Notes: generated by a model from the letters alone, not told the origin. Counted from the first letter of the stretch, positions 2,966 to 55,611 are shown. The stretch is 64,000 nt of DNA from an uncultured Spirochaetota bacterium (GCA_963768055.1 CAVYGN010000002.1:288001-352000), one strand, 5' to 3'. Program-made: numbers and translations.

Positions 2966-2970
2966 ATCGA

Positions 2971-4014: not shown

Positions 4015-4775
4015 ACCGTCGCCCTGCTGAATTTGCTTTTTAATTTATAAAACAGGGTAAATAAAAACAAAAAGAAAATCCTGAAAATACGGGCTAAATT
4101 ATACGGATGGATGAGGGTCGTATAAAACCCGTTCCATCCCTTCTTCTGGAACCAGATCGGCGGCATTTTCTTCTTGCCGGCTATAACCTTAAAAGAATTT
4201 CCGACCCCGACCGTTATCGAAGACTGGTAATAACCGAAATTTTTCGTAATCCATTTTTCCTGCTTCGGCCCTGAACCGTAGCTGGCTATAAATATCTGCG
4301 GCGAACTTTTCCTTATTGTGATCAGGACGTCCTGGAGTTCCTGGTTTTTGATATTGGAACGGTAGCTCCCGACAATCCTCGCCTGTGCGAAGGATTTCCG
4401 TATTCTCTTCAGGGTTTCCAGCGCCACGTTTTTTGTCCCCCCGAAAAGAAAGACCGTGTAATTCATCTCGTCGGCGGCGCGCATGAGATCGAGGTATAAT
4501 GTAACAGGCATGATGACATGGACCGTTTTTCCGGTTAGAAGCCTGACCATCCATGCGACGGTCTGGGAAGCGCAGATCACAATTTCAGTCTTTTTAAGGA
4601 TCTGCCGGAGTTCATGATTGAATAAAGAAAAGAACATTATCTTTTCATCCAGCAGCAATATTCGGAACCTTTCCTTGTCATAGATTGTCTGGATAAGGCA
4701 TTCTTTTAATTCTTCACGGTTCGTAAGGCTTATTTTTACTCCGAGCAAATTAACCGATTGAGGCAGCATCAGCAA
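4011..4775 (-). CDS. WecB/TagA/CpsF family glycosyltransferase
   Basis: FLFGG, P.QEKWI, GVGNSFKVIAG..K.PP.W motifs. Confidence 0.85.
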   Translation of the reverse strand: MLMLPQSVNLLGVKISLTNREELKECLIQTIYDKERFRILLLDEKIMFFSLFNHELRQILKKTEIVICASQTVAWMVRLLTGKTVHVIMPVTLYLDLMRAADEMNYTVFLFGGTKNVALETLKRIRKSFAQARIVGSYRSNIKNQELQDVLITIRKSSPQIFIASYGSGPKQEKWITKNFGYYQSSITVGVGNSFKVIAGKKKMPPIWFQKKGWNGFYTTLIHPYNLARIFRIFFLFLFTLFYKLKSKFSRATV

Positions 4776-4823
4776 GTCCCTCCTCCCCGAAGATTCTAAT
4801 ACAAAAGTGAAATTAATACAAAT

Positions 4824-6281
4824 CTATCCGAAGCAGACCCTTGTTTCCCTGGCGGCCTTTGTCTCATCCAGTCTTGTGACAGGGGTATTTCCGGGAGCGG
4901 CCAGAAGTTTACCGGGAGCCGCGGCCGCGGTTTCGGCTATTTCCTTCATTACCCCGATAAAATTATCGAGGGTTTCCTTATTCTCGGTTTCAGTCGGCTC
5001 TATCATTATCGCTTCTTTAACGATCAGGGGAAAATAAACCGTAGGAGGGTGGATACCCCTCTCAATCAGGCCCTTTGCTATGTCGAGGGCATGGACGCCG
5101 TAAGGCAATTGCTTTTCCGCCGAAAAGACGCATTCATGCATGCAGGTCCTGTCATATGGAAGATGATAATATTTTTTTAATTTTTCCTTTATATAATTCG
5201 CGTTAAGCACGGCCTGCTCCGAAACCCTTATCAGGCCCTCCCTGCCCAGAAGCAGGATATAAGCGTAAGCCTTGACCAGCACCCCGAAATTACCGAAAAA
5301 TCCGGATACGCGCCCGATGCTGTTTTTATTTTCGGGCGGCAGGAAATAACCGCCGGAGGCATTCCTTTTTATCACGGGAGATGGCAGAAATTCTATAAGC
5401 TCCTTTTTTACTCCGACAGGTCCGGCTCCGGGACCGCCGCCGCCATGAGGAGTCCCGAATGTTTTATGGAGGTTGACATGTACTACGTCAAACCCCGCAT
5501 CGCCGGGCTTTACCTTGCCCATTATCGCATTCAAATTTGCCCCGTCATAGTACATCAGGGCCCCGGCGGAATGGGCGAGCCCCGCTATTTCGGCGATCCT
5601 GGTTTCAAAAATCCCAAGGGTGTTTGGGCAGGTCATCATGACCGCAGCGGTTTCTTCATTCAATACTTTTTTAAATTCTTCAAGGTCCATTTCGCCATTT
5701 TCCAGGCTTTTGACGGTCACTATCTCGTAACCCGCCATCGCAGCCGAGGCAGGGTTCGTCCCATGGGAAGAATCCGGTACAATGACATATTTTTTCTTAT
5801 TCCCTTTCGATTTATGATAAGCGCCTATAAGGAGTATGCCCGTCATCTCGCCCTGAGCCCCCGCCATAGGCGCGGTTGTGACGCTGTCCATCCCGGTGAT
5901 CTCCGCGATGAGGCCTTCCAGGTCTTTTATAACGGCAAGACAGCCCTGGACAAGGCTTTCACCGCCGTCAATGTAACTTGAGAGAGGGTGGGCCCCCCGA
6001 AATCCGGGGAGATCGGCAGCTTTTTCCATAACCTTCGGGTTGTATTTCATAGTGCAGGATCCCAGGGGATAAAATTCAGTGTCGGCCGAAAAATTCAAAC
6101 GCGACAGCCTGGTGTAATGACGCACAACGTCGGGTTCGCTAACCTCTGGAAGGGCCGGCACTGAAAGTGTCAGCAATTCCGGGGGAAGACCGGGGGCCTC
6201 GGGTATATCAGCCCCGGGAATATCCAGGCCTCTTCTTCCCGGGACCGATTTCTCGAAGATCAGTTTTTCCATCCCGTTCAT
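4824..6281 (-). CDS. gcvPB: Glycine dehydrogenase subunit 2
   Basis: YPLGSCTMKYNP, NLHKTFGTPHGGGGPG, MIEPTETE. Confidence 0.97.
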   Translation of the reverse strand: MNGMEKLIFEKSVPGRRGLDIPGADIPEAPGLPPELLTLSVPALPEVSEPDVVRHYTRLSRLNFSADTEFYPLGSCTMKYNPKVMEKAADLPGFRGAHPLSSYIDGGESLVQGCLAVIKDLEGLIAEITGMDSVTTAPMAGAQGEMTGILLIGAYHKSKGNKKKYVIVPDSSHGTNPASAAMAGYEIVTVKSLENGEMDLEEFKKVLNEETAAVMMTCPNTLGIFETRIAEIAGLAHSAGALMYYDGANLNAIMGKVKPGDAGFDVVHVNLHKTFGTPHGGGGPGAGPVGVKKELIEFLPSPVIKRNASGGYFLPPENKNSIGRVSGFFGNFGVLVKAYAYILLLGREGLIRVSEQAVLNANYIKEKLKKYYHLPYDRTCMHECVFSAEKQLPYGVHALDIAKGLIERGIHPPTVYFPLIVKEAIMIEPTETENKETLDNFIGVMKEIAETAAAAPGKLLAAPGNTPVTRLDETKAARETRVCFG

Positions 6282-24695: not shown

Positions 24696-27560
24696 ATGAT
24701 AAGAAGATCGATGATCGTTTTTGCCGTAATGCTTTCCTGCTGCATATTTCATTCAAAAGACATTGAAATAAAGCCGATGCTTCATCTTAATACCTCCATG
24801 CACACCTCCGATATCTGGGGGCTTGACACGGATCAGCGCGGTAAATATGTCCTGACCGCTTCCCAGGATAAAACAGCAAGGCTCTGGGACACAAAAACAG
24901 GAGACCTTATAAGGATCTTCAGGCCTCCGATAGATACGGGAAGCGAGGGCATGCTTTACGCGGGGGCCATCTCCCCCGACGGAAAAACGGCCGCAGTAGG
25001 AGGATATACCGGTTATGACTGGACAGGCACATTCAATGTTTATATTTTCAACGCAAAAACCGGTGAATTAACCCATGAGCTGACAAATATTGACGAATCG
25101 CCTCAGAAAATCATCTATTCCCCCGACGGCAAATTTCTGGCCGTATGCCAGGGAAGAAAGGGCGGCGTATCGGTTTTCAATACTTCGGGCTGGTCTGAAA
25201 TACATCTAGGGGGATACGGGGACAAGGTCTTCGACGCCGTTTTTTATAAAAAAATGTTCGTTACCGTATCTTACGACGGCAAAATAAGGATTTACGACAT
25301 GGGCAAGCTTCCCCGCCCTGTCAAATCCGCCGTCCTGACTGGCGGTACCCAGCCCTGCAGCGTCGCGGTAAACCCTGACGGCAGCAAGATCGCTGTCGGC
25401 TACAGCGATGAGAACAGGATCCAGGTCCTGGACTTCGAATCCCTCGGCCTTCTTTATGAGCCTGACTGCACGGGAGGTTCCCAGATATATAACCTGTCAA
25501 GGGTCGCCTGGTCGCTCGATGGGAATTACCTTTACGCAGGCGGCAATTATATAGTTAAAATCAAAAACGAATGGTGGTGCCCTATCCGGATGTGGTCGGA
25601 AGGAGGCAAAGGGGAATACGATGAATCTCCGGCGGCTTACGGCTCTGTAAGAAATATAAAGGTACTTCCCGACAGCACTATCCTTTACAGCGGCTACGCC
25701 CCCGACTGGGGAAAAATGGACACTAACGGGAAAAAGTTGATATACAAAAGAGGGGAAATATTCCCGATGAATTCTTCCGACAGCGACTTCCTGAAAATCA
25801 AGGATGACGGCGAGGGCGTCAGCTTTACGCCGGTTGGAGGAATCCCTTATTCATTTTCGATACCGGACCGTAAACTCCTCGAAGGAGAGAGCATTTACAG
25901 CAATAACAGCCGGCCGGTCGAAGTGATGGAAATCAGCGATTTCGCTTATTCCACCGCTCCACGACTTAACGGCAAGATACTCAACATCCTTGACGACTAC
26001 GAGCATTCCAGATGCTACGCGGTGAATCCCTCAGGCGAATCCTTTCTTCTAGGAGCAGACTGGGACATTTATTATCTCGGTAAAAGCGGCGATATTATCT
26101 GGAAAAAGCAGGTTAACGCCGCCGTTTATTCCATAGGCATCGCGCAAACAAGGGAAATATTCGCCGCAGCTGTGGGGGACGGCACGATAAGGTGGTACAG
26201 GTTGAGGGACGGCATGGAACTTTTATCCCTTTATATAAACAGCGCCACGAAGAAATGGGTCCTCTGGACGCCTTCCGGCTACTACGATTGCTCAACCGGG
26301 GGCGACAATCTGATCGGATGGCATATTAATAACGGCCTTGAAAGGGCGGCGGACTTTTACCCGGCAAGCCGTTTCTCGGAAAAGTTCTACAGGCCGGATG
26401 TCATACCCCTGATATTCGATCATTATAACGACGAGTCGTTCGAGAACCTTGCCATAAACAATGCCACAAATGAAATAATGACTATACTGCCGCCGGTGGT
26501 TTCAATACTTTCGCCGGAAAACGGCGCAACGGTCGACAATCCCCGGGTAGAGCTTGTCATTAACGTGAGGACCCCTTTAAATACTAAAGTAATCGAGATC
26601 AAGACTCTGGTTAACGGCCGCCCTATAGCTAATAAAACAAAGGGGCTGACGGTTACCCCTGCAGGAAGGGAGGGTGAAACCGAGTCGATCGCCCTGACCC
26701 TTACCGGGGAAGTGAACGAAATTTCGGTCCTCGCCAGGAACGAAAACAGCTGGAGCGAACCCGCAACGATAAAAGTGACATACAGGAAGGGCGGTTCAGG
26801 CGAGGAATTCGTAATCAAGCCTAAGCTTTACCTTCTTGCGATAGGCGTCAGCCTTTACGACAACAAGGATATACGCCTGAAGTATCCGGCGAAAGACGCC
26901 GGCGATTTCGCACAGGCGATGATCCCTCAAAAGGGCGGCCTTTACAGGGATATTGAAGAAAAGATCTTAACAAATGAAAACGCAACGAAAGACAATATTT
27001 TAGACGCCCTGGATTGGATACAGAAGGAGACTACTTCCAAGGACGTGGCAATGATATTCCTTTCAGGACATGGAGTCGACGACGCCAATGGATTTTTCTA
27101 TTACCTGCCCGTAAACACGGACCTCGATAAACTGAAAAGGACCGCTGTACCTTTTACGGATATTAAAAACACAATAGCAAGCATTGCCGGAAAGACGGTC
27201 TTTTTCGTAGACGCCTGCCATTCCGGCAACATAATGGGGACAAGGAAGGGAATACCGGATATAAACGGGATAGTGAACGAACTTACATCAGCTGAAAACG
27301 GGGCCGTTGTCTTCACCTCGTCCACAGGCAACCAGTACTCGCTTGAATCCGACGAATGGGCGAACGGAGCCTTTACCAAGGCCCTCGTCGAAGGCTTGCG
27401 CGGAAAAGCGGACTATGATAAAACCGGAAGGATCACGATCAATATGATAGATCTGTACGTATCCGAAAGGGTCAAGGAATTGACCAAAGGTGCCCAAACC
27501 CCGTCGACGACTAAACCCCAGACGATACCGGATTTTCCCGTAGCTATCGAGAAAAAATGA
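24696..27560 (+). CDS. Secreted WD40-repeat protein with C-terminal caspase (peptidase C14) domain
   Basis: TASQDKTARLWD WD40 repeats; FLSGHG and DACHSG dyad; NGAFT. Confidence 0.9.
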   Translation: MIRRSMIVFAVMLSCCIFHSKDIEIKPMLHLNTSMHTSDIWGLDTDQRGKYVLTASQDKTARLWDTKTGDLIRIFRPPIDTGSEGMLYAGAISPDGKTAAVGGYTGYDWTGTFNVYIFNAKTGELTHELTNIDESPQKIIYSPDGKFLAVCQGRKGGVSVFNTSGWSEIHLGGYGDKVFDAVFYKKMFVTVSYDGKIRIYDMGKLPRPVKSAVLTGGTQPCSVAVNPDGSKIAVGYSDENRIQVLDFESLGLLYEPDCTGGSQIYNLSRVAWSLDGNYLYAGGNYIVKIKNEWWCPIRMWSEGGKGEYDESPAAYGSVRNIKVLPDSTILYSGYAPDWGKMDTNGKKLIYKRGEIFPMNSSDSDFLKIKDDGEGVSFTPVGGIPYSFSIPDRKLLEGESIYSNNSRPVEVMEISDFAYSTAPRLNGKILNILDDYEHSRCYAVNPSGESFLLGADWDIYYLGKSGDIIWKKQVNAAVYSIGIAQTREIFAAAVGDGTIRWYRLRDGMELLSLYINSATKKWVLWTPSGYYDCSTGGDNLIGWHINNGLERAADFYPASRFSEKFYRPDVIPLIFDHYNDESFENLAINNATNEIMTILPPVVSILSPENGATVDNPRVELVINVRTPLNTKVIEIKTLVNGRPIANKTKGLTVTPAGREGETESIALTLTGEVNEISVLARNENSWSEPATIKVTYRKGGSGEEFVIKPKLYLLAIGVSLYDNKDIRLKYPAKDAGDFAQAMIPQKGGLYRDIEEKILTNENATKDNILDALDWIQKETTSKDVAMIFLSGHGVDDANGFFYYLPVNTDLDKLKRTAVPFTDIKNTIASIAGKTVFFVDACHSGNIMGTRKGIPDINGIVNELTSAENGAVVFTSSTGNQYSLESDEWANGAFTKALVEGLRGKADYDKTGRITINMIDLYVSERVKELTKGAQTPSTTKPQTIPDFPVAIEKK

Positions 27561-42540: not shown

Positions 42541-43346
42541 AATAACATTACTGATCACACTGAAATCTTATATTTATATTTCCTTTAATCCCCTTATTAT
42601 ATAGTATATTCTTGTAACTATTTTGAAGCTTCATCATTCAAAATATTTGAACTCATTAACCAATAAATTATATATTTCTTCTTTAACTATTTTCATTTGT
42701 TCAGATATCTCTTTAAACATTGAAATTAAATCATGGCAGCCATTGATTTCTGCATACTTTTTTATTTGAATTAAACCCGAATCTTTAGTTAAAAAATCAG
42801 GATAGTTAAAATATTTAAAGTATGGTTCATTTTGTAGTCCAATGTTACGTAATATATCACCTTTGCAGTAGTTAATATTCCATTCTTTATATAATATTTT
42901 AATAGTATTAACGAGGTTAATAGCTTGAGATGGAGTTTCCACAATAAAATTATCTAATTCTTTCATCCAAAAGGAATCAGGATTATTGGTACTCAGCGGA
43001 TTATTGACAAAGACTTCTGGAGCTCCATCTACAGGATTATCTTTTTCAAATTTAGTTACAACACATCCATTTTCAGCCAAACCAAAGGCAAAGCATAATG
43101 AATAAAAATATGCTTCTAAATGTTGAAAAATTTCTGGTTGCCAGATATCAAATTGATTTGCCCAAATGGGATATTTCCCATTCAAGGCTTTTGTTATTGC
43201 AAACCAAGAAAATATTTTCTTTGCGGAAATAAAATTATATGCCGAATATCCTTTTTGATCGGGAGTTAAATTAGTACATCTTGATTTATTCATATCAAGA
43301 AAAGCTGTATCTATCGGTTTTTGTCAAGGGAGTTGTCGCTTTTATT

Positions 43347-44375
43347 TTACGCCGCAACCAACGATTCCTTGTTAGTCTTACTCGGGTTTAAAAATACCGA
43401 TTCTATCCGTTCCCATTTTTTAGATTCTCCTGACCATCTTTCAGGATGTCTGCTTTTTGCAGCCGCATAAGTTTCCGCTCTCTTCAGGAGTATCGCCTTA
43501 TCTTTACCTTCATGTCTCTGTGCTGGTGTGACATATCCGATCCCTGAATGAAGATGTTTATTATTATACCAGTCTACAAAATTTTGCATCCATATTTCTA
43601 CCGATTCCATTGTCTCGAAATTGCCTGGGTATTTCACATTATATTTCAATGTTTTAAACAATGATTCTGAGTAAGGGTTATCGTTACTTACACTCGGCCT
43701 TGAAAACGACGGCATAACCTGTAACCTCTGCAAGGTCGCTAACATCGTAGCCCCTTTCATAGGAGAACCATTATCAGAATGTAAATACAAGCCTTTCAAA
43801 TCAATGGTTTCTCCGATCTCTGCCACCATTCTTGCGGCATGATCAGAGCTTTCCTCCTCGTGCATTTTCCAGCCGACTATCTTACGGCTCCAGACATCTT
43901 CGATCATATAGAGGTAGAAATACTTACCTTTTATATGACTGGATATATATGTAATATCCCAACTCCATACCTGATTAGGACCCGTCGCTTCCAGTTCTCT
44001 TGGCGTTTTCCTTGCCGTTTTCGGCTTCGTTTCGTATCTATGGTGCAGCAAATCATTGTCCTTTAAAACGCGGTAAAAAGATGATTCTGATGCTATATAC
44101 CGACCTTCCTCTGCCAGCATGGGCACTATTTCATTCGGCGTCATATCTCTAAATCTCTCGCTGCAACAGCAGGAGATGATCTCCTCCCTTTCTTCGGCCG
44201 ACAGGGCATTTGAAGGCATTACATTTCTCAATTTTCTTCTGTCTCCCTCAAGATTTTTATTCCAGCGCTGTATGGTCCTTATATCATAGCCAGATTCTTC
44301 ACAAGCCTTATCCCTGCTGGCCCCTGTCGTAACAGCCTCATTAATCAAGGCACAGATATCTATGCGTATATCCAA
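43347..44375 (-). CDS. IS3-family transposase OrfB
   Basis: WSWDITY, HSDNG, DNPYSESLFKTLK DDE motifs. Confidence 0.95.
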   Translation of the reverse strand: MDIRIDICALINEAVTTGASRDKACEESGYDIRTIQRWNKNLEGDRRKLRNVMPSNALSAEEREEIISCCCSERFRDMTPNEIVPMLAEEGRYIASESSFYRVLKDNDLLHHRYETKPKTARKTPRELEATGPNQVWSWDITYISSHIKGKYFYLYMIEDVWSRKIVGWKMHEEESSDHAARMVAEIGETIDLKGLYLHSDNGSPMKGATMLATLQRLQVMPSFSRPSVSNDNPYSESLFKTLKYNVKYPGNFETMESVEIWMQNFVDWYNNKHLHSGIGYVTPAQRHEGKDKAILLKRAETYAAAKSRHPERWSGESKKWERIESVFLNPSKTNKESLVAA

Positions 44376-44380
44376 TGGAG

Positions 44381-44863
44381 TTAATCTTCCTCGATCCCGA
44401 ACAGCTTGTTCAGTTTTTTTTTAAGCACCAGCAGAGAAGTAACCTCGGCTATAGTTTTATCCTTACGGTTAATTTCTTTTTCTAACTCTATGATTTTTGC
44501 TTTCAAACCCTTGTTTTCTTCTCTGTATGAGTTATTAGATATCACTGATAAACACTCCTGTTTCCAGAGTTCGATATGAGTCGACTGGAGACCATTTTTT
44601 CTCAACCACTGTCCTAACTCTTCTCCCGATTGGCTTGCTGCGTCTACTACCGCCTGATATTTATCAGATAATTTCCAGCCTCTCGGGCTTCTATCCTGGA
44701 ATCCTCTGGATACATTATTCTGGATCATTTTCCTCCAGTTGTAAAGGGTTTGTTCACATACTCCTATTTCCTGGCTCAGTTCAGATACTGTTTTTCCTCC
44801 TGGCATACACATCTTTTGAACGATAGATTTCCTGAATTCCTCTGAACGAATTTGACTATTCAT
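44381..44863 (-). CDS. IS3-family OrfA
   Basis: HTH with QTLYNW; A9 run near 3' end. Confidence 0.92.
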   Translation of the reverse strand: MNSQIRSEEFRKSIVQKMCMPGGKTVSELSQEIGVCEQTLYNWRKMIQNNVSRGFQDRSPRGWKLSDKYQAVVDAASQSGEELGQWLRKNGLQSTHIELWKQECLSVISNNSYREENKGLKAKIIELEKEINRKDKTIAEVTSLLVLKKKLNKLFGIEED

Positions 44864-46248
44864 TTTTTGTCTCCTAATATTTTAGGCGACAACTATCCTA
44901 ACACACGGGGCTATCCTGAACCAAACAGAATTAATATTATTTATTGAAAATCTTATATTATCTCTTGGATTAATTCTTACAGGTGTACCATCTTCCATTC
45001 CTCCAATAAAATTAGAATTCGTTACCCCATATGTTTTCTTATTATTTCTCCTTTCATCTTTTAACGGTAAACCGCCATAAATCTGTTTGGAATCAATTTC
45101 TTGTTTTGTAGGGTCTCTTTTAAAATCATACATCGCCTGTTTAGACCATATTTTTATAGATGTTCTATTTTGTGAAAAATTAATTATTTTAGATTGTTTT
45201 ATGACTTTTAATATTATTTTGTTAAGTTCTTCGAGTGATAAACCCCAGTTAATTGATAACTCTTTAGCCTCTACATTTGAATAATCATTAATTTTGATGA
45301 TATTACTATTTCCTTTTTCATTAAAATTATAACTCCAAATTGTAAATGAAACCGGGAAATTACCAATATTTTTAAAAAATCCATTGCCATTTACAATAAA
45401 CCCTTTTTCATATTTAAAATGCTTATCAAAAACTTCTCTAAATGCTTTATACGAAGGCCTTGGTATCAACCATGAAGTTGCAGTAAATATTAATAAAATT
45501 GGATTCAAACCCGGATGCTTCTCTAAATATAATTTTGACAGATTTAAAATTTGAGCCAAAAAAGCAGTATATCTTTCATTTCCCGCATCGTTACCTGTAA
45601 GTTCAATTATAGATGGATCTACTTTATAATTTGAATTAGCATTTATTCTTATATTAATATTCTCATCAGTATTTTTATAAGGTGGATTTAACAGGAATGC
45701 CAAAGGCTTATCGAAAGATAAATTTTTTTCTTTCAACTCATTTTCTAAAATTTGAAGATATTCATTTGCGGTTTTATCAATAAAATTCAACCCTTTATTT
45801 TCTGATGTCTTTGGTATTATAGTAAACCCTGCTTGAATATCATCCGGATCATTTTTCATTCTTCTTTCAATCGTTTTTAATAAATCCGGCTGCAATTCAG
45901 AAACTATTTTATGTTTTAAATGTCCTCTCCAGCTTGTTACTAAATTCCCTGATCCGCCTGCAGGATCAAATACTATATATTTGTCTGATAATTTGGTTTC
46001 GTAATAATGATGGACAAACCACAATGCGAATTTGCTTAAATTAATATTTGTAAAAAAAATTCCATTCTGTCTTACGTAATCAGGATTTATTCTATTAATA
46101 ACTTCATCAAATCTACTAAAATAATGGGAATTACATACTTGACTACCTAATATGAATATTTTGGGTTTGTTTGATAATTTTATTAGAGTAAATTAAAAAT
46201 AAGAAAATAAACTCTTTTATATTTATTAATAAAATAAAGGAATTACTT

Positions 46249-46425
46249 ATGTCTATTAAAAAATTCAAAGAAGGAAAATTAATTAAAGAATATAGCATTC
46301 CTAATAAACGATTAGAATCTATAATTAAAATTTTAGATGAAAATAAAATCAATGTTCTGATGTATAATTGCGATCCTCAAATGAATACGGCAGACCTTAG
46401 AATAGAATTTTTAGAAGAAAATTAA
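46249..46425 (+). CDS. Small hypothetical protein (58 aa)
   Basis: AAGGA RBS after R1; MSIKKFKEGK... Confidence 0.6.
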   Translation: MSIKKFKEGKLIKEYSIPNKRLESIIKILDENKINVLMYNCDPQMNTADLRIEFLEEN

Positions 46426-46571
46426 ATCTGTCCTGAACCGCCGCATTTTGGGCATGCTTTTCTTTTGTCGCCACCACAAGAATGACATTCTTTCCCATTA
46501 ATTTTCCCGGTTCCATGACAAACAGGGCAGATAATTGTTTTTGCTCCGTGACAAGTTGGACACATAGCCAT
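46422..46571 (-). CDS. Stand-alone DnaJ-type zinc finger protein (49 aa)
   Basis: MAMCPTCHG..CPVCHGTG..CHSCGG..CPKCGGSG; GGAGG RBS. Confidence 0.85.
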   Translation of the reverse strand: MAMCPTCHGAKTIICPVCHGTGKINGKECHSCGGDKRKACPKCGGSGQI

Positions 46572-46715
46572 TTTATTCCTCCGCAATAATTAATAGTTAA
46601 GTGTAGTTCGTTTTCGTAAATTGTCAATAGTTTGTTTGATAATTTTATTAGAGTAAATTAAAAATAAGAAAATAAACTCTTTTATATTTTTAAATAATAT
46701 AAAGGAGTGTATATT

Positions 46716-46889
46716 ATGTTAAACTTTAAAATCGGTGATTCTGTAATGTTAAAATCAGGGGGAGTTACAAGAACAGTCATTAAAATATTGAAAAATGGGT
46801 TTATAAAATGTTCTTATTTAAACCCCAATAAAAGATTCTTTAAAAAAATGATTAATGTTTTTAATCCTTTGGTACTTACTAAAGTTTAA
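46716..46889 (+). CDS. DUF2158/YodC-like small protein
   Basis: FKIGDSVMLKSGG. Confidence 0.8.
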   Translation: MLNFKIGDSVMLKSGGVTRTVIKILKNGFIKCSYLNPNKRFFKKMINVFNPLVLTKV

Positions 46890-46894
46890 TTAAA

Positions 46895-47095
46895 TTAATC
46901 TTTTACCAATTCTATCACATTTGGATTAAAAGTAGCAAATATTGGTTTCTTTGTTGATTCATCTTCTCTTGTACATCTTATATCACCAATATGTACAGCA
47001 AATAGTGGATTATTTTCTGTTACAATGGAATGAACTACCCATTTAGACCCACCACTTTTCATTTTAACAATATCTCCAATATTAAACGTATCCAT
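46895..47095 (-). CDS. DUF2158/YodC-like small protein
   Basis: FNIGDIVKMKSGG. Confidence 0.8.
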   Translation of the reverse strand: MDTFNIGDIVKMKSGGSKWVVHSIVTENNPLFAVHIGDIRCTREDESTKKPIFATFNPNVIELVKD

Positions 47096-47293
47096 TTTAT
47101 TCTTCCCAATAGTTATTGGTTAAGCGTACCATTTATTTAATAAAATTGTCAATATTACGAATACACAAATCAAAAAAATTGATTTAAAATTATTCTTATC
47201 TTATTGTAATCAAAGGAGTTCTGCGCCTATACCCCTCATTTTATAAAGTAGTCAAAATATGTTATAATATATGTGCTGAAAGGGAGAAAAGGC

Positions 47294-48215
47294 ATGAAAA
47301 ACACGGCGATCAGCACGTATGAGTTTTTGAAAAGTTTTCCCGATGAAAAGTCTGCGAGGATTTATTTAGAGAAGGAACGCTGGAATGGTAAAATAACTTG
47401 TCCTTTCTGTGGAAATAAAGATCGTATTCAGGTAAGGAAAGAAGAAGGCTATTTTCGTTGTTTGGCTTGCAAAAAGGATTTCACTGTCCGTACAGGGACT
47501 ATTTTTGAAAGGTCTCATGTTCCTCTTGATAAATGGCTTTACGCAATGTACCTTGTCGTAACCGACCGTAAAGGAATTTCATCATTGGAACTATCAAAGG
47601 TTATTGGGATTACTCAAAAGTCAGCCTGGTTTTTATTACAGCGTTTACATGAAGCATGCAAAGGCGAGAACACTATCCTTTCCGGCATAATCGAAGCCGA
47701 TGAAACGTATATCGGCGGCAAAGAGAAAAACAAACATTCTAATAAAAAAGCGAGAGCCGGACGTGGTGCAGTTGGAAAGACGGCAGTATTAGGCATGAAA
47801 GAAAGGAATGGAGACGTAAAAGCAATTGCAATTCCTAATACGGAAGCTTCGACTATTCAAGATATTATCAGAGAAACAGTCGTTCCAGGTTCAATGCTTT
47901 TTACAGATGAACATCGGTCGTATAATGGTATGACGGAATATACACATCTTTCAGTCAATCATAGTGCGAAGGAATTTGTAAACGGCATGGCTCACACAAA
48001 CGGTATTGAAAGCGTATGGGCTGTGTTGAAGCGTGGATATTACGGCACATTCCATCATTTTTCAGTCAAGCATCTTCAAAGATATGTTGACGAGTTTTCA
48101 TTTCAGGTTGAATGAAGGCAAATGTAAGATTAAATCTATAGATCGTATTAATGCTTTATTCACTAAAACTGTCGGTGTTCACATGACGTATAAAGAATTG
48201 AAGGATATACATTAA
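47294..48215 (+). CDS. IS1595-family transposase with 1-nt frameshift near 48102
   Basis: CPFC..CLAC Zn ribbon, EADETY, TDE, HTNGIES, YVDEF; removing one T gives DEFSFRLNEG...MTYKEL. Confidence 0.93.
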
Positions 48216-48257
48216 TTCTAACTCCTTTATATTTAGTAATAATAAAGGAGTTTATCT

Positions 48258-48482
48258 ATGCGAAAATGTAGAATTGTAAAAAATTTAGACAATCAGAAAT
48301 TTTATCCAGAAGTGTTTACAGATTATTTTGGTTATGATGACTGGCTAAATTTTGAAGATGAAAAACAAGGTTCAGGGTCAATAGCATCATTTGACACTCT
48401 TAAAGAAGCAGAAGATTTTTGTAATAAATTTATTAAGCATTCTCAAGCAGATAAAATAGAATCTCAAAAAGAATTAAACTAA
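48258..48482 (+). CDS. Small hypothetical protein (74 aa)
   Basis: AAGGAG RBS inside a partial R1 motif. Confidence 0.65.
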   Translation: MRKCRIVKNLDNQKFYPEVFTDYFGYDDWLNFEDEKQGSGSIASFDTLKEAEDFCNKFIKHSQADKIESQKELN

Positions 48483-48821
48483 TTTTTTAGGGACATCATA
48501 ATCATTATCAAGTTCTGTCGAGGCTTTTGCAAGATCAAAATAATCACTTAAATGGTTTATTAACATTTCAATAAATCTTCCATGATAAACACCATAAGTT
48601 TCTCTTTCTAATTCCTCATCTTTTCTTTTTAGAATTCCAAAATTTATTTGTTTATCAAGTAAATACGGTTTTAACCATGCTTTATTTTCCCAATTATCAG
48701 CGATATGTGTAAAATCACCAGCCTTGTCTGGTTTCCATGTTCTTATTTTGTTACTTTCAATAAGTTCATTGATTTTTTCTAAAAAACCTCTTGGATTATT
48801 TGTCTGGATATAAATAGCCAT
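48474..48821 (-). CDS. Hypothetical protein (115 aa)
   Basis: Starts within R2; TW..D..GDFTH, YHGRFIEML. Confidence 0.75.
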   Translation of the reverse strand: MAIYIQTNNPRGFLEKINELIESNKIRTWKPDKAGDFTHIADNWENKAWLKPYLLDKQINFGILKRKDEELERETYGVYHGRFIEMLINHLSDYFDLAKASTELDNDYDVPKKLV

Positions 48822-48937
48822 TTTATTCCTCCGCAATAATTAATAGTTAAGTGTAGTTCGTTTTCGTAAATTGTCAATAGTTTGTATTCTAAAGTTTTTG
48901 TTATATAATATTGGAAATAGGATAATGGAGGCAAAAT

Positions 48938-49432
48938 ATGTTTTGTCCTAAATGTGGAAAAGAAAACGTTGACACGGCGGCTTTCTGTATCGCTTGTGGA
49001 AACAAAATTAGCCAAGACAATTCTACTGTTCAAGAGAAGGTTGAAGTCCAGGAGAAACCTACTAAGGTAAAATTACCAGGATTAATTCTCGCATTTGTTT
49101 TGGGACTAATCGCATTTTTAACACAAATAATAAGTATAATATTCCTTGTAATTATGGAAAATTGGAAAGTAATTTCATTTACTAATACAATTAAAGAGGC
49201 AGTGAATAATAGTTTATTGATATTTGGGGTTATATTGGTAATATTAGCCATTATAGTAATTGTTTTTAGTATCATTGGTCTGGTTTTGGGTAGTAAAGCA
49301 TTAAAAACTTTTAAATTGAATCCAACACAATATCAAGGTAAGGGTTATGCAACGGCGGGAAAAGTTTTTTGTATTCTTAGTCTTGCAATATATATTATTC
49401 CAATAATTATTCTTATTTGGTTATTATTTTAA
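48938..49432 (+). CDS. Zinc-ribbon membrane protein (DUF4190-like C-terminus)
   Basis: MFCPKCG..FCIACG; G.GYATAG TM segments. Confidence 0.8.
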   Translation: MFCPKCGKENVDTAAFCIACGNKISQDNSTVQEKVEVQEKPTKVKLPGLILAFVLGLIAFLTQIISIIFLVIMENWKVISFTNTIKEAVNNSLLIFGVILVILAIIVIVFSIIGLVLGSKALKTFKLNPTQYQGKGYATAGKVFCILSLAIYIIPIIILIWLLF

Positions 49433-49472
49433 TCGGACATATTTACAGACAATAAATAAGAAGGTTAAATAA

Positions 49473-49598
49473 ATGAAGAAACAAATTAAACCAAAAGAAA
49501 GTAAGAATAAAGGCAAGAAATATGAAAAGCCGTTATCACTCTATTCAATAGGAATGAAGAAGGTTTTAAATATAGTGCTAAAGAAGAATAAAGCTTGA
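49473..49598 (+). CDS. Small basic protein (41 aa)
   Basis: MKKQIKPK...KPLSLYSIGMKKVLNIVL. Confidence 0.45.
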   Translation: MKKQIKPKESKNKGKKYEKPLSLYSIGMKKVLNIVLKKNKA

Positions 49599-49637
49599 TT
49601 CCTCTTTATATTTAGGTAAAAACCGGAGGATTCAATT

Positions 49638-50255
49638 ATGAATACTTTTGAAGCATTTCAAATAACATTATTTTTAATTCCAGGATTTCTATCATCAATT
49701 ATATTAAATGCACTTATTGTCCAAAAGGAGAAAAATAAATTTAATCTTATTATTGAAGCTTTGATTTTTTCATTGTTTATATATCTTCCATTAGCTATTT
49801 TAAATCAAAGTAATCCATTAATAATAGATTCCCAATTTAAGATAAGTTATAATGCGGTATCAATGATTTTTCTTGTTATTTTTAGTTTGATTTATCCTAT
49901 GGTTTTATCTTTTCTAATTAATAATGATGAGTTATTAAAATTTGCCAGAAAAATTCATATAACTAAAAGAACTTCAAGAGAATCTGTATGGTATGATGTA
50001 TTTTATGATCATAATAATTTGATTGTCGTAAATTTTTTAGATGGACGAAGGCTTTGTGGATATCCATTACATTATTCTGATAATCCAGAACATCCCTATT
50101 TATATCTAAAAAAACCTGCTTGGATTACTACAAATGAAAATAAAGAACTAAAATATTTAGGAATCGATCAAGATGATGGTATATTGATAACTCCAGAACA
50201 AAAAATAACCTATATTGAATTTTTAAATATACCAAAAGAAAAACTGATAGGGTAA
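49638..50255 (+). CDS. Membrane protein, DUF6338-like
   Basis: LIPGF, TM helices, SVWYDVF, GILI. Confidence 0.7.
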   Translation: MNTFEAFQITLFLIPGFLSSIILNALIVQKEKNKFNLIIEALIFSLFIYLPLAILNQSNPLIIDSQFKISYNAVSMIFLVIFSLIYPMVLSFLINNDELLKFARKIHITKRTSRESVWYDVFYDHNNLIVVNFLDGRRLCGYPLHYSDNPEHPYLYLKKPAWITTNENKELKYLGIDQDDGILITPEQKITYIEFLNIPKEKLIG

Positions 50256-50256
50256 A

Positions 50257-50490
50257 TTAATTATCTTTTTTAGTTGTTTCAGTTGATGTTGTTGTAACGA
50301 TAGGAGCCGCAATTGGTGGAGTTAAATTATTATAAAATTCCGTTGCATTTAATTTATTAAATAATGCTTCAGGATTTTTTGATAAATTATTATCTATTGA
50401 AGCAGTCTTTGATTTTTTGGCGATATTCTCTAAATCGTTTTTAGATTCTTTGAGATATTTTATTAAATCTTCTGGTTTATTATCAGGCAT
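50257..50490 (-). CDS. Small hypothetical protein (77 aa)
   Basis: GGGAG RBS; stop abuts 50255. Confidence 0.55.
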   Translation of the reverse strand: MPDNKPEDLIKYLKESKNDLENIAKKSKTASIDNNLSKNPEALFNKLNATEFYNNLTPPIAAPIVTTTSTETTKKDN

Positions 50491-50561
50491 ATTAAACTCC
50501 CGAAATAGTGTATCATATTTATATTTGTGATGTCAAATGAAATTAAAAGGCAAAGATGATG

Positions 50562-50586
50562 TTAGGTAGTTAAGTATGTAATTCCC
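50562..50586. repeat. Internal second copy of the IS1595 right end (1 mismatch)
   Basis: TTAGGTAGTTAAGTATGTAATTCCC plus shared subterminal GAAATTAAAA.GCAAAGATGATG. Confidence 0.9.
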
Positions 50587-50677
50587 ATTTGTAAATAATA
50601 TAAAGGAGTATGTATTATGAAAAATTCTATGGTTTCAGTCATAACGACTGATCATGATTTTTTAATGGAGGAATATC

Positions 50678-50848
50678 ATGGCAACAACTTTTAAAAAGGG
50701 TGATAAAGCTAAACTTAATTCTGGAAGTCCTGTTTATACTATAACACGAATTAGAAAAGATGGACTTGTTGATTATTATTGGATTGGTAATGATGGGAAA
50801 AAACAAAAAAGTTTTGCTCCGTCTGCTTGTTTAACTAAGATTGAGTAA
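50678..50848 (+). CDS. DUF2158/YodC-like small protein (56 aa)
   Basis: MATTFKKGDKAKLNSGSP; GGAGG RBS. Confidence 0.75.
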   Translation: MATTFKKGDKAKLNSGSPVYTITRIRKDGLVDYYWIGNDGKKQKSFAPSACLTKIE

Positions 50849-51065
50849 CAAGCATTACTTCTTCTGGTCCATAAAAATTTAATTCATCTTTATTGGAAGA
50901 AGAATCATACCATTTACAAATTAAATCTCCATGAGAACGGTGTCTTAATAAAGCTTGCATGTTATAAGGTCCTTCATTGGTTCCATCATAGATACAGACA
51001 ATAACCATGTCAGGACCACCACTTTTTAATCTAACAACATCACCGACTTTAAATTTTTCAGCCAT
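50835..51065 (-). CDS. DUF2158/YodC family protein
   Basis: FKVGDVVRLKSGGPDM..CKWY. Confidence 0.85.
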   Translation of the reverse strand: MAEKFKVGDVVRLKSGGPDMVIVCIYDGTNEGPYNMQALLRHRSHGDLICKWYDSSSNKDELNFYGPEEVMLVTQS

Positions 51066-52081
51066 TTTAATCTTTTCCTCCTTTTTATATTTCATTGTAG
51101 CATAATTTGGATGAAATTAAAAAGCAAAGATGATGTTAGGTAGTCAAGTATGTAATTCCCAAAATAATCATCAATAGTTAATCCTGCATTTGGATTAGTA
51201 TAAATATAATGTTGTTCAACAAATTTTCTAAACTCATATTGATTTTTTGAAGCTAATAAAAATCTTTCACTATTTTTTCTTCCACCTTGGCAACTTACCC
51301 ATACTTCATCAGGTTTATTCTCTGCTGGTTCGGCTACAACACTAGTAATATCCCAATAAGAAACAATAGCATAGAAGCAATGAATTGCTGCCATAGGCTC
51401 TTCAAAATACTCTTTAAGCATTTCAATTTTATTTATAAAATTTTGAGGATCGATTTGTAGTCTAGTTGAATCTAAGTTCTTCAAATGTTCAACAAATTCT
51501 TCTAATTTACGGTCAATAAATAGTGAATGAATTTCATCTTTGTTAATAACTAATATTGCATAATCAAGCAATTCTTTCTTTTCAGTACTTTTTAATTTAT
51601 TTGAATTAATATGGCCGATTTCACTTGGTGATTTATTCGGATCAGAATTTGTTACAATTTCAAAAATATAATTAGGTAAATTAGATATTTTCCATAAACC
51701 AATAAAATTATGAGAAATTATACAAATACTGGAAAATGTTAGTCCTTTTTTATTGTAATGATATGCTTGAAAAAATCCTGATAGCCAATCATCTTCTTTA
51801 GTTTTTAATTCAACAATTAAACGTCCTTTTATATAAATATCGGCACCATGTGCTTCTGATTCTTTTAGAAAATCTTTTGAACTGAATATATTTTTAAACA
51901 AAGGAAATATAAGATAATCATCAGCTTTTTCAGAATGAGAACTTGTTAAATATTTGTATAATTGTTTAAGCTCTTTCATACAAATGCCACCTGAATATCC
52001 TGCCAAGATAGTAAATTATCTAATCCCATCAATAATTATAACAGATTTATTTGTTTTATAAAAGAGTCATTTTGAAGCTCT

Positions 52082-52849: not shown

Positions 52850-53018
52850 AATTTCAATTCCTCTATTTTATATATTTTATCAAAAAATTCTTTTCTAATT
52901 TCGCCACTATTTAAATCATTTTTTATTCGTTTAATATAATCATTAAAATTAGGATTAATCTTTGCCATCTTCCCCGTGTGTTAGGATAGTTGTCGCCTAA
53001 AATATTAGGAGACAAAAA

Positions 53019-53501
53019 ATGAATAGTCAAATTCGTTCAGAGGAATTCAGGAAATCTATCGTTCAAAAGATGTGTATGCCAGGAGGAAAAACAGTATCTG
53101 AACTGAGCCAGGAAATAGGAGTATGTGAACAAACCCTTTACAACTGGAGGAAAATGATCCAGAATAATGTATCCAGAGGATTCCAGGATAGAAGCCCGAG
53201 AGGCTGGAAATTATCTGATAAATATCAGGCGGTAGTAGACGCAGCAAGCCAATCGGGAGAAGAGTTAGGACAGTGGTTGAGAAAAAATGGTCTCCAGTCG
53301 ACTCATATCGAACTCTGGAAACAGGAGTGTTTATCAGTGATATCTAATAACTCATACAGAGAAGAAAACAAGGGTTTGAAAGCAAAAATCATAGAGTTAG
53401 AAAAAGAAATTAACCGTAAGGATAAAACTATAGCCGAGGTTACTTCTCTGCTGGTGCTTAAAAAAAAACTGAACAAGCTGTTCGGGATCGAGGAAGATTA
53501 A
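53019..53501 (+). CDS. IS3-family OrfA
   Basis: Identical protein to 44381-44863; A9 at 53460-53468, OrfB in -1 frame. Confidence 0.92.
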   Translation: MNSQIRSEEFRKSIVQKMCMPGGKTVSELSQEIGVCEQTLYNWRKMIQNNVSRGFQDRSPRGWKLSDKYQAVVDAASQSGEELGQWLRKNGLQSTHIELWKQECLSVISNNSYREENKGLKAKIIELEKEINRKDKTIAEVTSLLVLKKKLNKLFGIEED

Positions 53502-53506
53502 CTCCA

Positions 53507-54535
53507 TTGGATATACGCATAGATATCTGTGCCTTGATTAATGAGGCTGTTACGACAGGGGCCAGCAGGGATAAGGCTTGTGAAGAATCTGGCTATGATA
53601 TAAGGACCATACAGCGCTGGAATAAAAATCTTGAGGGAGACAGAAGAAAATTGAGAAATGTAATGCCTTCAAATGCCCTGTCGGCCGAAGAAAGGGAGGA
53701 GATCATCTCCTGCTGTTGCAGCGAGAGATTTAGAGATATGACGCCGAATGAAATAGTGCCCATGCTGGCAGAGGAAGGTCGGTATATAGCATCAGAATCA
53801 TCTTTTTACCGCGTTTTAAAGGACAATGATTTGCTGCACCATAGATACGAAACGAAGCCGAAAACGGCAAGGAAAACGCCAAGAGAACTGGAAGCGACGG
53901 GTCCTAATCAGGTATGGAGTTGGGATATTACATATATATCCAGTCATATAAAAGGTAAGTATTTCTACCTCTATATGATCGAAGATGTCTGGAGCCGTAA
54001 GATAGTCGGCTGGAAAATGCACGAGGAGGAAAGCTCTGATCATGCCGCAAGAATGGTGGCAGAGATCGGAGAAACCATTGATTTGAAAGGCTTGTATTTA
54101 CATTCTGATAATGGTTCTCCTATGAAAGGGGCTACGATGTTAGCGACCTTGCAGAGGTTACAGGTTATGCCGTCGTTTTCAAGGCCGAGTGTAAGTAACG
54201 ATAACCCTTACTCAGAATCATTGTTTAAAACATTGAAATATAATGTGAAATACCCAGGCAATTTCGAGACAATGGAATCGGTAGAAATATGGATGCAAAA
54301 TTTTGTAGACTGGTATAATAATAAACATCTTCATTCAGGGATCGGATATGTCACACCAGCACAGAGACATGAAGGTAAAGATAAGGCGATACTCCTGAAG
54401 AGAGCGGAAACTTATGCGGCTGCAAAAAGCAGACATCCTGAAAGATGGTCAGGAGAATCTAAAAAATGGGAACGGATAGAATCGGTATTTTTAAACCCGA
54501 GTAAGACTAACAAGGAATCGTTGGTTGCGGCGTAA
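53507..54535 (+). CDS. IS3-family transposase OrfB
   Basis: Identical protein to 43347-44375. Confidence 0.95.
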   Translation: MDIRIDICALINEAVTTGASRDKACEESGYDIRTIQRWNKNLEGDRRKLRNVMPSNALSAEEREEIISCCCSERFRDMTPNEIVPMLAEEGRYIASESSFYRVLKDNDLLHHRYETKPKTARKTPRELEATGPNQVWSWDITYISSHIKGKYFYLYMIEDVWSRKIVGWKMHEEESSDHAARMVAEIGETIDLKGLYLHSDNGSPMKGATMLATLQRLQVMPSFSRPSVSNDNPYSESLFKTLKYNVKYPGNFETMESVEIWMQNFVDWYNNKHLHSGIGYVTPAQRHEGKDKAILLKRAETYAAAKSRHPERWSGESKKWERIESVFLNPSKTNKESLVAA

Positions 54536-55611
54536 AATAAAAGCGACAACTCCCTTGACAAAAACCGTCTTGTTAATAGTTTCAAGGTCAATAACTTCTT
54601 TGAATTTCGCTTGAAATATTGTTTTAGTAGAATTTGGATCTTCCAAATCAAGTTTTATTATACCTATTCCAAATGATGATGAGAGTCTTTCAAGTTCATT
54701 TGTAAAATTTTCATCATCAAGTATATCAGCAGCAACCAGATAACCTTCATTTGCCCATGAAGAATTAGATACTGCTTGAAAAAATGATTCCCTAAGATTA
54801 TTAAAATTCAAAGATATTTTTAATTCATACGAATATAACTTTATGGGCGAAATATTTAATTCTTTAGTTAAATTTATTACTTCTGGTAACCAATTGGGGT
54901 AATAAACGCCAACAATATCAGGATGTGCCCATTGACCAAATGTTTTTTTAGTTGATTCTTCGTGATAAATTGTTTTTGTATAAATATCTTGAAAGGCATA
55001 AACATAATAAGAGAGAAATTTATGTAAATCTTTTTCTTTAAGTTTTTTAATTTCATCTGATTCTTCTATTTTTATTTCTTTTGATTTTATTTGGTTAGAT
55101 AAAGATTTTAGATAAAATTTTGTTGGCCGTTCTTCTGCCTTGTAAAATTTAGAATTCTTATTATCTTTCAGGTCTAAATATAACAAAGCTGCCATTGTCT
55201 GCCATGGAGTTTTTCCTGATGAATTTAATTGTTTATCATAATTCATTTCTTTACCAATTTTCCAAATTTCCATTTTTGTTAATGGCCTTTTTGTGTCATT
55301 AAGAACTTTCTCGGCAAAATCAAGAAAATTCATATTACCTTCTATTTAACATTATTTATCCCAAGTATAGTTAAAATGCCATACATATAAAGAATTTTTG
55401 TCTTATAAAATGTTCTATCTAAAATTAATAATCGTACTTCTTCATTATTGTACAACTCTAATTAATGTAATTATACCCCCGCTTTTAAATTCTCTCAATA
55501 GATTGCCAATAATTCTGTGGAATTGATATGTTTGATAGGAAAAAAATTATATAAATTAATCTACCCCTCGCGCAATCTGTACCCATCTGTGAAATCAGTG
55601 TTTCCGTCCCC

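Follow-up and report, generated by a model that had tools for sequence, protein, structure and literature searches.

Structure and insertion of the element

We analysed a stretch of 64,000 nucleotides (nt) from an uncultured Spirochaetota bacterium (GCA_963768055.1, CAVYGN010000002.1:288001-352000), called the window below, in which positions are counted from the first letter. The window contains a transposon of the IS1595 family of insertion sequences (IS), located at 46126-51160 (5,035 bp). Besides the transposase gene it carries 12 small passenger genes (A to L) that lie on both sides of the transposase gene, and 10 of these form five convergent pairs. Repeated promoter-like modules are found before many of the genes, and were named R1 (before rightward genes) and R2 (before leftward genes). 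From left to right the order is left inverted repeat (IRL), R1a-A-B, R2a/R1b-C-D, R2c, the promoter-like site and gene of the transposase, R1c-E-F, R2b, G, H, R1d-I-J, an internal copy of the right end (IRR'), R1e-leader open reading frame (ORF)-K-L and the right inverted repeat (IRR). The features are listed here with position and strand.

46118..46125, no strand: target-site duplication, left copy (AAAATAAT, 8 bp)
46126..46150, plus: IRL, left terminal inverted repeat, 25 bp, 0 mismatches
46165..46241, plus: R1a, TTGATA-18-AAAAAT, weak hairpin (-4.5 kcal/mol, z -0.95) and AAGGA, before gene A
46249..46425, plus: gene A, 58 amino acids (aa), orphan; Shine-Dalgarno-like motif, sub-threshold Pfam matches only
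46422..46571, minus: gene B, 49 aa, four CXXC motifs; PF00684, phrog_28723; strong GGAGG ribosome-binding site
46564..46635, minus: R2a, TTGACA-16-TACACT, GGAGG, gene B beginning with ATGGCTAT (repeat and promoter scan)
46630..46706, plus: R1b, back to back with R2a, before gene C; hairpin 46672-46712
46716..46889, plus: gene C, 57 aa, DUF2158-like; phrog_3261, PF09926 below cut-off
46895..47095, minus: gene D, 66 aa, DUF2158-like; phrog_3261, PF09926 below cut-off
47087..47150, minus: R2c, diverged R2 before gene D (alignment)
47294..48215, plus: IS1595-family transposase gene; PF12762, PF12760
48220..48252, plus: R1c, hairpin over the ribosome-binding site, before gene E and directly after the transposase reading frame
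48258..48482, plus: gene E, 74 aa, near-orphan; one 66-aa relative
48474..48821, minus: gene F, 115 aa, unnamed conserved family; 80 relatives, confident model
48814..48885, minus: R2b, 72 nt identical to R2a, before gene F (repeat and promoter scan)
48938..49432, plus: gene G, 164 aa, zinc ribbon and DUF4190-like part; PF13240, PF13828
49473..49598, plus: gene H, 41 aa, lysine-rich; ORF with Shine-Dalgarno-like motif
49595..49635, plus: R1d, UCCUCU paired with the GGAGGA ribosome-binding site of gene I (-11.9 kcal/mol)
49638..50255, plus: gene I, 205 aa, DUF6338 family; PF19865
50257..50490, minus: gene J, 77 aa; ORF with Shine-Dalgarno-like motif, promoter-like site 50536-50507
50537..50587, minus: IRR', second copy of the right end (repeat 50562-50586 and 25 subterminal nt); 51 nt at 96%
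50587..50694, plus: R1e (3' half of R1, joined to IRR') and 25-codon leader ORF
50678..50848, plus: gene K, 56 aa, DUF2158-like; phrog_3261
50835..51065, minus: gene L, 76 aa, DUF2158; PF09926 above cut-off, phrog_3261
51111..51160, minus: outer right end (IRR repeat 51136-51160 and 25 subterminal nt)
51161..51168, no strand: target-site duplication, right copy (AAAATAAT, 8 bp)
42634..52006, minus: target gene, about 900 codons after removal of both insertions; interrupted by the IS1595 element and by an IS3 copy at 43315-44910

The outer terminal inverted repeats consist of the 25-mer GGGAATTACATACTTGACTACCTAA, which was found with 25/25 matching positions at both 46126-46150 (plus strand) and 51136-51160 (minus strand). 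A third copy with 1 mismatch, at 50562-50586 (minus strand), is part of IRR', so that the window holds three matches against 0.00 expected in shuffled sequences. The outer ends are bordered by the 8-bp direct repeat AAAATAAT (46118-46125 and 51161-51168). Flanking direct repeats of about 8 bp are typical of the IS1595 family in ISfinder. When the element and one copy of AAAATAAT were deleted by a script, a continuous minus-strand frame of 696 codons was obtained. As the target frame returns after excision and AAAATAAT is duplicated, this is a true transposition into a gene by an IS1595-type element.

The transposase matched PF12762 (2.1e-43; 148 bits, cut-off 27) and PF12760 (1.1e-10), and is thus a DDE transposase with an ISXO2-like catalytic domain and an N-terminal zinc ribbon. 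It has at least 8000 relatives, several of which are labelled IS1595 family transposase by their sources. The closest non-self match among the matches listed had 77-78% identity, and most of the 119 relatives listed were 301-326 aa long. The matches to PF12762 and PF12760, the 25/25 terminal repeats, the 8-bp direct repeat flanking them, the restored target frame and the 12 passenger ORFs inside the repeats, with their ribosome-binding sites and family matches, bear out the assignment to the IS1595 family that was made in a preliminary description of this DNA.

The first frame of the transposase gene ends at a stop codon at 48115 and gives a product of 273 aa. The last 38 residues or so can be read in the +1 frame (48093-48215), and this tail matches residues 273-307 of the intact transposase of a related element (locus L001, see below), with which the protein is 68% identical. 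Since the transposase is frameshifted, the element is probably no longer autonomous; the frameshift itself may be a sequencing error. A promoter-like site is present before the gene at 47240-47268, and the gene has a GC content of 39%.

The small genes and their convergent arrangement

The five convergent pairs that the preliminary description had reported were recovered at the same coordinates in our ORF table. Their ends lie -14 to +5 nt apart in all five cases: A/B overlap by 4 nt (46249-46425/46422-46571), C/D are separated by 5 nt (46716-46889/46895-47095), E/F overlap by 9 nt (48258-48482/48474-48821), I/J are separated by 1 nt (49638-50255/50257-50490) and K/L overlap by 14 nt (50678-50848/50835-51065). 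With a terminator scan no terminator-like site was detected at any of the five junctions, again in agreement with that description. The region as a whole contains two such sites (48967-48979 and 50635-50651), with 1.7 expected. The earlier inventory was incomplete in other respects. It had missed the unpaired genes G (48938-49432) and H (49473-49598), both rightward, as well as the 25-codon leader ORF, the internal right end and the transposase frameshift.

The start sites were scored for a Shine-Dalgarno-like 4-mer at positions -16 to -5 in the 18 ATG-started ORFs of at least 40 codons in the element. Such a 4-mer was found in 10 of the 12 cargo ORFs and in the transposase gene, and in none of four alternative ORFs of at least 40 aa; 7.6% of the 12-nt windows in this DNA contain one by background. 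The two exceptions were D, which has GGGAAG by eye, and L, which was scored at its upstream ATG and has, by eye, GGAGG 11 nt upstream of its inner ATG at 51065. The cargo is a set of 12 genes, which are predicted to be expressed separately. Their GC content is 23-33%, except for B (43%), as compared to about 27% in the island around the element and 45-52% in the host flanks. No known RNA family was found in an Rfam scan of 45500-51700 at E<=1.

Repeated modules before unrelated genes

The exact repeats, the degenerate third R2 and the three partial R1 versions of the preliminary description were all found again. The two full R1 copies (46165-46241 and 46630-46706) are 96% identical over 77 nt and do not differ in the first 60, and the two R2 copies (46564-46649 and 48814-48899) are identical over the first 72 nt. 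Each core occurs exactly twice in the window, with 0 expected. R2c, at about 47087-47150 before gene D, aligns as an older, diverged copy of R2. Partial versions of R1 are present at 48220-48252, 49595-49635 and 50587-50616.

On the minus strand R2 reads TTGACA, 16 nt, TACACT, about 25 nt, GGAGG, 6 nt and ATGGCTAT, and its promoter-like site scored 10/12 at both copies. Gene J has a site with the same hexamers (TTGACA-18-TACACT, 50536-50507). R1 has TTGATA-18-AAAAAT (9/12), followed by a hairpin that has the ribosome-binding site as its 3' arm. With these scores the blocks do look like modules of promoter and ribosome-binding site, as had been proposed, and on the basis of the matches R1 and R2 are predicted to act as promoters.

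The hairpin of R1b had a folding energy of -12.8 kcal/mol (z -4.44), and 0 of 200 shuffled sequences folded as well. The values were -12.0 kcal/mol (z -2.94) for R1c and -11.9 kcal/mol (z -2.68) for R1d. In R1a the hairpin is degraded, and R1e is truncated. No fold was found in the leaders of the leftward genes B/F, J and L. The R1 stems are AT-rich, cover the ribosome-binding site and are not called by the terminator scan. Their arms covary, CUCUUUU or CUCCUUU being paired with AAAGGAG and UCCUCU with GGAGGA, and because the arms change together we argue that sequestration of the ribosome-binding site has been selected. Translation thus appears to be gated in the rightward partners, in K through a leader ORF and in the others through a hairpin, and to be open in the leftward ones. 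The leader ORF of K (50617-50694, plus strand, 25 codons) lies behind the ribosome-binding site of R1e and overlaps the start of K by 17 nt, which suggests that translational coupling may replace the lost hairpin.

The identity of both modules stops abruptly at unrelated ORFs (A versus C for R1, and B versus F for R2). The far sides of the modules differ as well, R2a running into R1b via a shared GTTTGT and R2b into the promoter-like region before G. Identity of 100% followed by an abrupt stop is not what divergence after an old duplication gives, whereas recombination, gene conversion or module capture fits. We consider recombination the probable cause of the module sharing.

An internal copy of the right end

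The two copies of the right end agree at 48 of 50 aligned positions, and were detected as 51 nt at 96% in the repeat search. The 3' half of R1 follows IRR' without a gap, the joint lying within the hairpin loop. Genes J and L each lie just inside a right-end copy, and the K/L unit measures 574 bp. The internal copy of the right end indicates that the last pair, K/L, was probably added by fusion with a second element, and a possible route is given in the Discussion. The repeats with their sharp borders, the hairpins and the extra end are all features of the present element.

Protein families of the cargo

PHROG matches at E<0.01 were obtained for 8 of the 12 cargo proteins. Four of them matched phrog_3261 (C 5.2e-5, D 4.9e-4, K 9.9e-7 and L 1.2e-11). 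The match of L to DUF2158 (PF09926, 1.8e-10) reached 40.8 bits with a cut-off of 22.3; those of C (0.0034, 17.5 bits) and D (4.7e-4, 20.3 bits) were below the cut-off, and K had no Pfam match. In an alignment of the four proteins the motif F-x-x-G-D...S-G was common to all, and D-L had the highest pairwise score (75), with 56 for C-K. Based on these similarities C, D, K and L are likely to be four DUF2158 paralogues. In the literature searched DUF2158 was found only in two tables, for YodC, a small protein under the RpoS stress sigma factor, and for a weak match of a mycobacteriophage protein. A structure model of L (4-sequence alignment, predicted local distance difference test (pLDDT) score 80) showed a small five-stranded barrel. 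Its PDB matches, all at E of at least 0.024, were PWWP, ribosomal proteins, R67 DHFR, PsaE and NdhS, and an SH3-like barrel is a lead only. No match to L was found with tblastn in plasmids and phages.

Gene B encodes four CXXC motifs of the DnaJ type over 49 residues (PF00684 3.2e-5, below the curated cut-off; phrog_28723 3e-5). Gene G has an N-terminal zinc ribbon (PF13240 2.5e-8) and a hydrophobic DUF4190-like part (PF13828 2.3e-7, below cut-off), and matched phrog_2546 and phrog_4852. Gene I belongs to DUF6338 (PF19865 7.3e-13, above cut-off), with an N-terminal half that is hydrophobic by eye; in the literature searched the family came up in one paper. DUF6338 relatives were found in 6 plasmid records by tblastn. 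At the three loci inspected they follow an ATP-binding protein and an S8 peptidase, ThiF and MPN, or small unknown ORFs. Two of the three loci thus have neighbours of the conflict type, and a J-like partner was absent from all three. Gene E has one relative (66 aa, 42% identity, E 1.4e-6); it also led to clusters of hypothetical phage proteins (score 0.90) and had no tblastn match in plasmids.

The family of gene F comprised 81 proteins at E<=0.001, including F itself, of about 110 aa, which are 35-53% identical and have 15 invariant columns. The model of F had a pLDDT of 94.6. Among PDB folds it had no match at E<=0.001, a KA1 domain at E 0.074 coming closest, and the profile of the family gave nothing below E 0.36 against PDB sequences. 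One viral match was obtained, an uncharacterised Burkholderia phage protein (E 6.5e-5). Relatives of F were found in 9 plasmid records by tblastn, and 7 of these loci (L002-L008) were inspected. One has an NYN-domain gene 3 nt downstream, another a TIR-domain gene downstream, a third an anti-phage dCTP deaminase upstream and a fourth a convergent pair of a UvrD-helicase and an AAA-ATPase gene; the others showed a DUF4041 gene, a DUF2188 gene and an unannotated record end. Defence-type neighbourhoods were thus seen at 4 of the 7 loci, and an E-like partner beside the F relative at 0 of 7. We regard the family of gene F as a candidate for a small defence-island component.

No toxin or antitoxin Pfam family was found among the proteins of the element. 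Most of the cargo belongs to families known from phages or from the vicinity of defence genes. It looks like the kind of small accessory gene that phages and defence islands carry, and from this neighbourhood company a role in conflicts between phages, mobile elements and hosts may be proposed. With its four probable DUF2158 paralogues, the putative DUF6338 membrane protein and the well-folded family of about 110 aa it offers a compact set for functional testing.

Relatives of the element

When genome contigs were scanned with the terminal repeat, a single locus was found, L001, on a 6.2-kb contig of a metagenome-assembled genome; the source genome was absent from the matches. This element has an identical left repeat, and its intact transposase of 312 aa begins 42 nt after that repeat. 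Its co-directional cargo comprises a DNA methylase (PF01555) and fragmentary unknown ORFs; by eye, the right repeat matches imperfectly, at about 19 of the 25 positions. It shows neither R1/R2 nor convergent pairs. The same left end with different cargo implies that the lineage carries differing cargo in different hosts, as transporter ISs do.

The L001 element lies 117 nt downstream of a restriction-modification pair of the HindIII type. It occupies 2356-5015 of its contig, and the sequence before it, AAAATAATT, is very similar to the AAAATAAT target. There may be a preference for AT-rich targets and a link to restriction-modification loci, as seen in two cases only. By eye, part of the L001 transposase gene (2479-2556) is found again, nearly unchanged, at the very start of the contig (1-78); either a second copy or an artefact of assembly could account for this.

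The interrupted gene and the surrounding island

When the IS3 copy near the 3' end of the target gene and its CTAT duplication were removed in addition to the IS1595 element, a frame of about 900 codons was obtained. By eye the product contains a PD-ExK-like stretch (DIYIKG...VELK), FDPAGGSGNL and NPPY, motifs that suggest a fused nuclease-methyltransferase. Its parts had no Pfam, NCBIfam, PADLOC or PDB sequence match.

Two IS3-family copies of 1596 bp, at 43315-44910 and 52972-54567, are 100% identical and inverted, and enclose 8061 bp of low-GC DNA. A composite transposon made of these copies was considered and rejected: each has its own 4-bp duplication (CTAT and TCTT), and separate duplications mean two independent IS3 insertions. 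A HARE-HTH protein (PF05066 2.4e-10) is encoded at 54491-55333 on the minus strand and abuts the right IS3 copy. Because of this protein and the interrupted target gene, the low-GC stretch at about 42-56 kb suggests a defence-type island riddled with insertion sequences. Elsewhere in the window, at 24696-27560 (plus strand), lies the gene of a 954-aa, conflict-system-like protein with a C-terminal caspase domain of the EACC1-associated type (NF047832 3.3e-27, below cut-off).

Discussion

The reading that we prefer, with a probability of roughly 55%, is that the element is a transporter IS with a mosaic cargo, in which promoter-plus-gene units were joined by recombination between modules and by fusion of element ends, and were packed tail to tail. 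Recombination at the short re-used modules would set the same promoter and leader before unrelated genes, R1 supplying a promoter and a ribosome-binding site concealed in a hairpin, and R2 a promoter, an open ribosome-binding site and ATGGCTAT. The K/L pair may have arrived when, of two related elements close together, one used its right end to attack the R1 loop in its neighbour. Deletion of the intervening DNA, an adjacent deletion mediated by an IS end, is the simplest route, and the fusion would have brought in K/L together with a second right end. The fused element would then have moved as one unit on its outer ends into the long methyltransferase-like gene in the low-GC island, leaving the current 8-bp duplication. 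Tail-to-tail packing without terminators would represent compaction of promoter-plus-gene units, with the side effect that each transcript runs antisense into the partner gene. The facing transcripts might conceivably regulate each other, as the preliminary description had proposed. Its other proposal, an array that gains or swaps genes, is consistent with the data and may hold; in its favour, the 60- and 72-nt identities end sharply at unrelated ORFs, an extra right end is present inside the element and the cargo of L001 differs.

Several observations weigh against this reading. The cargo, R1 and R2 were seen in this one element only (R1 and R2 being searched within the window), which left no further copy to compare for variation of the cargo; a blastn search of plasmids and phages with the whole element gave no match. 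The exact repeats could have arisen by gene conversion, or by one local duplication followed by gene replacement. No internal left-end remnant (at least 62% identity) was found that would explain why A-D follow the left repeat and precede the transposase gene. The transposase is cut short (273 aa, frameshifted), and its truncation may mean that the element is a decaying relic. Promoter-like matches are frequent in this AT-rich DNA, with 50 found against 31.5 +/- 6.5 in shuffled sequences. As to the cargo, a word-based search with gene A returned only itself, gene J had no relatives (no usable atlas match), and gene H, which was checked against family libraries only, had no Pfam, PHROG or PADLOC match. 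Known defence proteins of PADLOC were matched by 0 of the 14 proteins tested.

The element could instead be a conventional transporter IS in which R1, R2 and the right end underwent internal tandem duplication and which is now decaying, with modules that do not serve as recombination handles, no exchange of genes and only incidental packing. This is possible, though we find it clearly less probable. The frameshifted transposase and the single copy in the window and the collections searched are what a relic would show, and the probably paralogous DUF2158-like pairs C/D and K/L, with scores of 75 for D-L and 56 for C-K, fit duplication of a unit. However, A is unrelated to C and B to F, and uniform divergence after duplication cannot leave 60-72 nt that are 100% identical beside ORFs that cannot be aligned. 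Moreover, IRR' is joined inside the R1 hairpin and not at the border of a duplication. That the small frames are chance ORFs in AT-rich filler, and the repeats non-coding transposon ends, is very improbable and is largely refuted: A, H and J lack relatives and chance frames of 50-80 codons do occur on other strands, but Shine-Dalgarno-like motifs separate 10/12 cargo ORFs from 0/4 alternatives, 8/12 are matched by a family or PHROG, conserved families include F and I, and nearly no non-coding space is left outside the modules.

The convergent arrangement has another potential explanation, namely that the pairs are two-gene systems, either toxin/antidote-like or mutually exclusive switches that act via antisense transcripts or protein binding. 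We regard this as quite unlikely. Relatives of F have varied neighbours and no E-like partner at 7/7 loci, E had no plasmid match by tblastn, the three DUF6338 loci inspected lack a J-like partner, and no toxin, antitoxin or defence family was matched. What such systems would account for is the ending of 5/5 pairs within -14 to +5 nt with no terminator, the asymmetry of the partners (rightward with a hidden ribosome-binding site or a leader ORF, leftward open), the pairing of DUF2158 with DUF2158 in two pairs and the membrane-type DUF6338 protein of gene I.

A bolder reading, which taken as a whole we think unlikely, is that the IS1595 lineage contains a recombinase-free cassette system, with R1/R2 and spare ends as the handles and with the pairs as antisense-coupled switches. 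Small phage-type defence and counter-defence genes would then be captured, swapped and lost between elements, and the rightward gene, with its ribosome-binding site hidden in a hairpin, would be switched on only while its leftward partner, which can be translated constitutively, is off. If true, such a system would be the transposon counterpart of the hyperplastic regions of T4-like phages.

Comparison with known systems

According to a passage of PMC3129680 (citing Siguier, Gagnevin and Chandler 2009), the transporter ISs (tIS) of the IS1595 family carry passenger genes. The element is like these in its IS1595-type DDE transposase with an N-terminal zinc ribbon, its inverted repeats, the 8-bp duplication and passengers that have no part in transposition. 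It differs in having 12 passengers on both sides of the transposase gene, convergent pairs, re-used promoter modules and an internal right end. The ordinary layout of a transporter IS is seen in L001, with the transposase beside the left repeat followed by co-directional cargo.

Promoter-early stem-loops (PeSLs) of T4-like phages are described in PMC2839356 and PMC4122927 as AT-rich stretches with a sigma-70-type promoter, a stem-loop and a ribosome-binding site. Their copies precede small, mostly unknown and unrelated ORFs, and recombination is held to shuffle the genes without a dedicated recombinase; about 50 PeSLs per genome are present in hyperplastic regions of these lytic phages, with GC-rich terminator/attenuator stems and with mini-circles. 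R1 is similar in combining a sigma-70-like promoter match, a hairpin and AAGGAG before small ORFs, in two full and three partial copies. In contrast to PeSLs, the element has two exact copies each of two module types. It is a transposon in a chromosome, as the housekeeping genes in other parts of the window show, its AT-rich stems mask the ribosome-binding site, its genes are convergent, and any exchange or mini-circle would be hypothetical here. No paper naming both PeSLs and insertion sequences was found in the literature searched.

Integron arrays, too, bring together small and variable genes, most of them uncharacterised, on a mobile carrier. In contrast to their single Pc promoter, the element has promoter-like sites for individual genes and mixed orientations. 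The Pfam scan of the element's 13 proteins revealed no IntI-type recombinase domain, in line with the preliminary description. There is no room for attC-like 3' sites at the abutting or overlapping gene ends, and recurrent hairpins were found only in 5' leaders, no dedicated attC model having been run. The missing IntI and the lack of space for attC led us to reject an integron.

In type I toxin-antitoxin loci with 3' overlap and in excludons, facing promoters and overlapping 3' ends are found with no terminator between them. The pairs of the element differ from such antisense-coupled loci in that both partners are protein-coding with good ribosome-binding sites and belong to no known toxin family, and any coupling is putative. 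Promoter reuse, or putative mobile promoters, has been described in a whole-genome survey (PMC3575422) as near-identical promoter regions before unrelated genes. In the element, reuse takes place within one 5-kb unit and includes the leader and the first codons.

The preliminary description took the architecture to be undescribed. This is not supported, as transporter ISs (PMC3129680) and PeSL cassettes (PMC2839356, PMC4122927) cover most of the idea. If the modules do mediate exchange, integrons and phage PeSLs would be joined by a third means for mobile DNA to collect and reshuffle small accessory genes, and this one would ride on one of the simplest transposons known. The element is an unusual but not unprecedented cargo-collecting design that has its closest parallels in the IS1595 transporter ISs and the PeSL cassettes.

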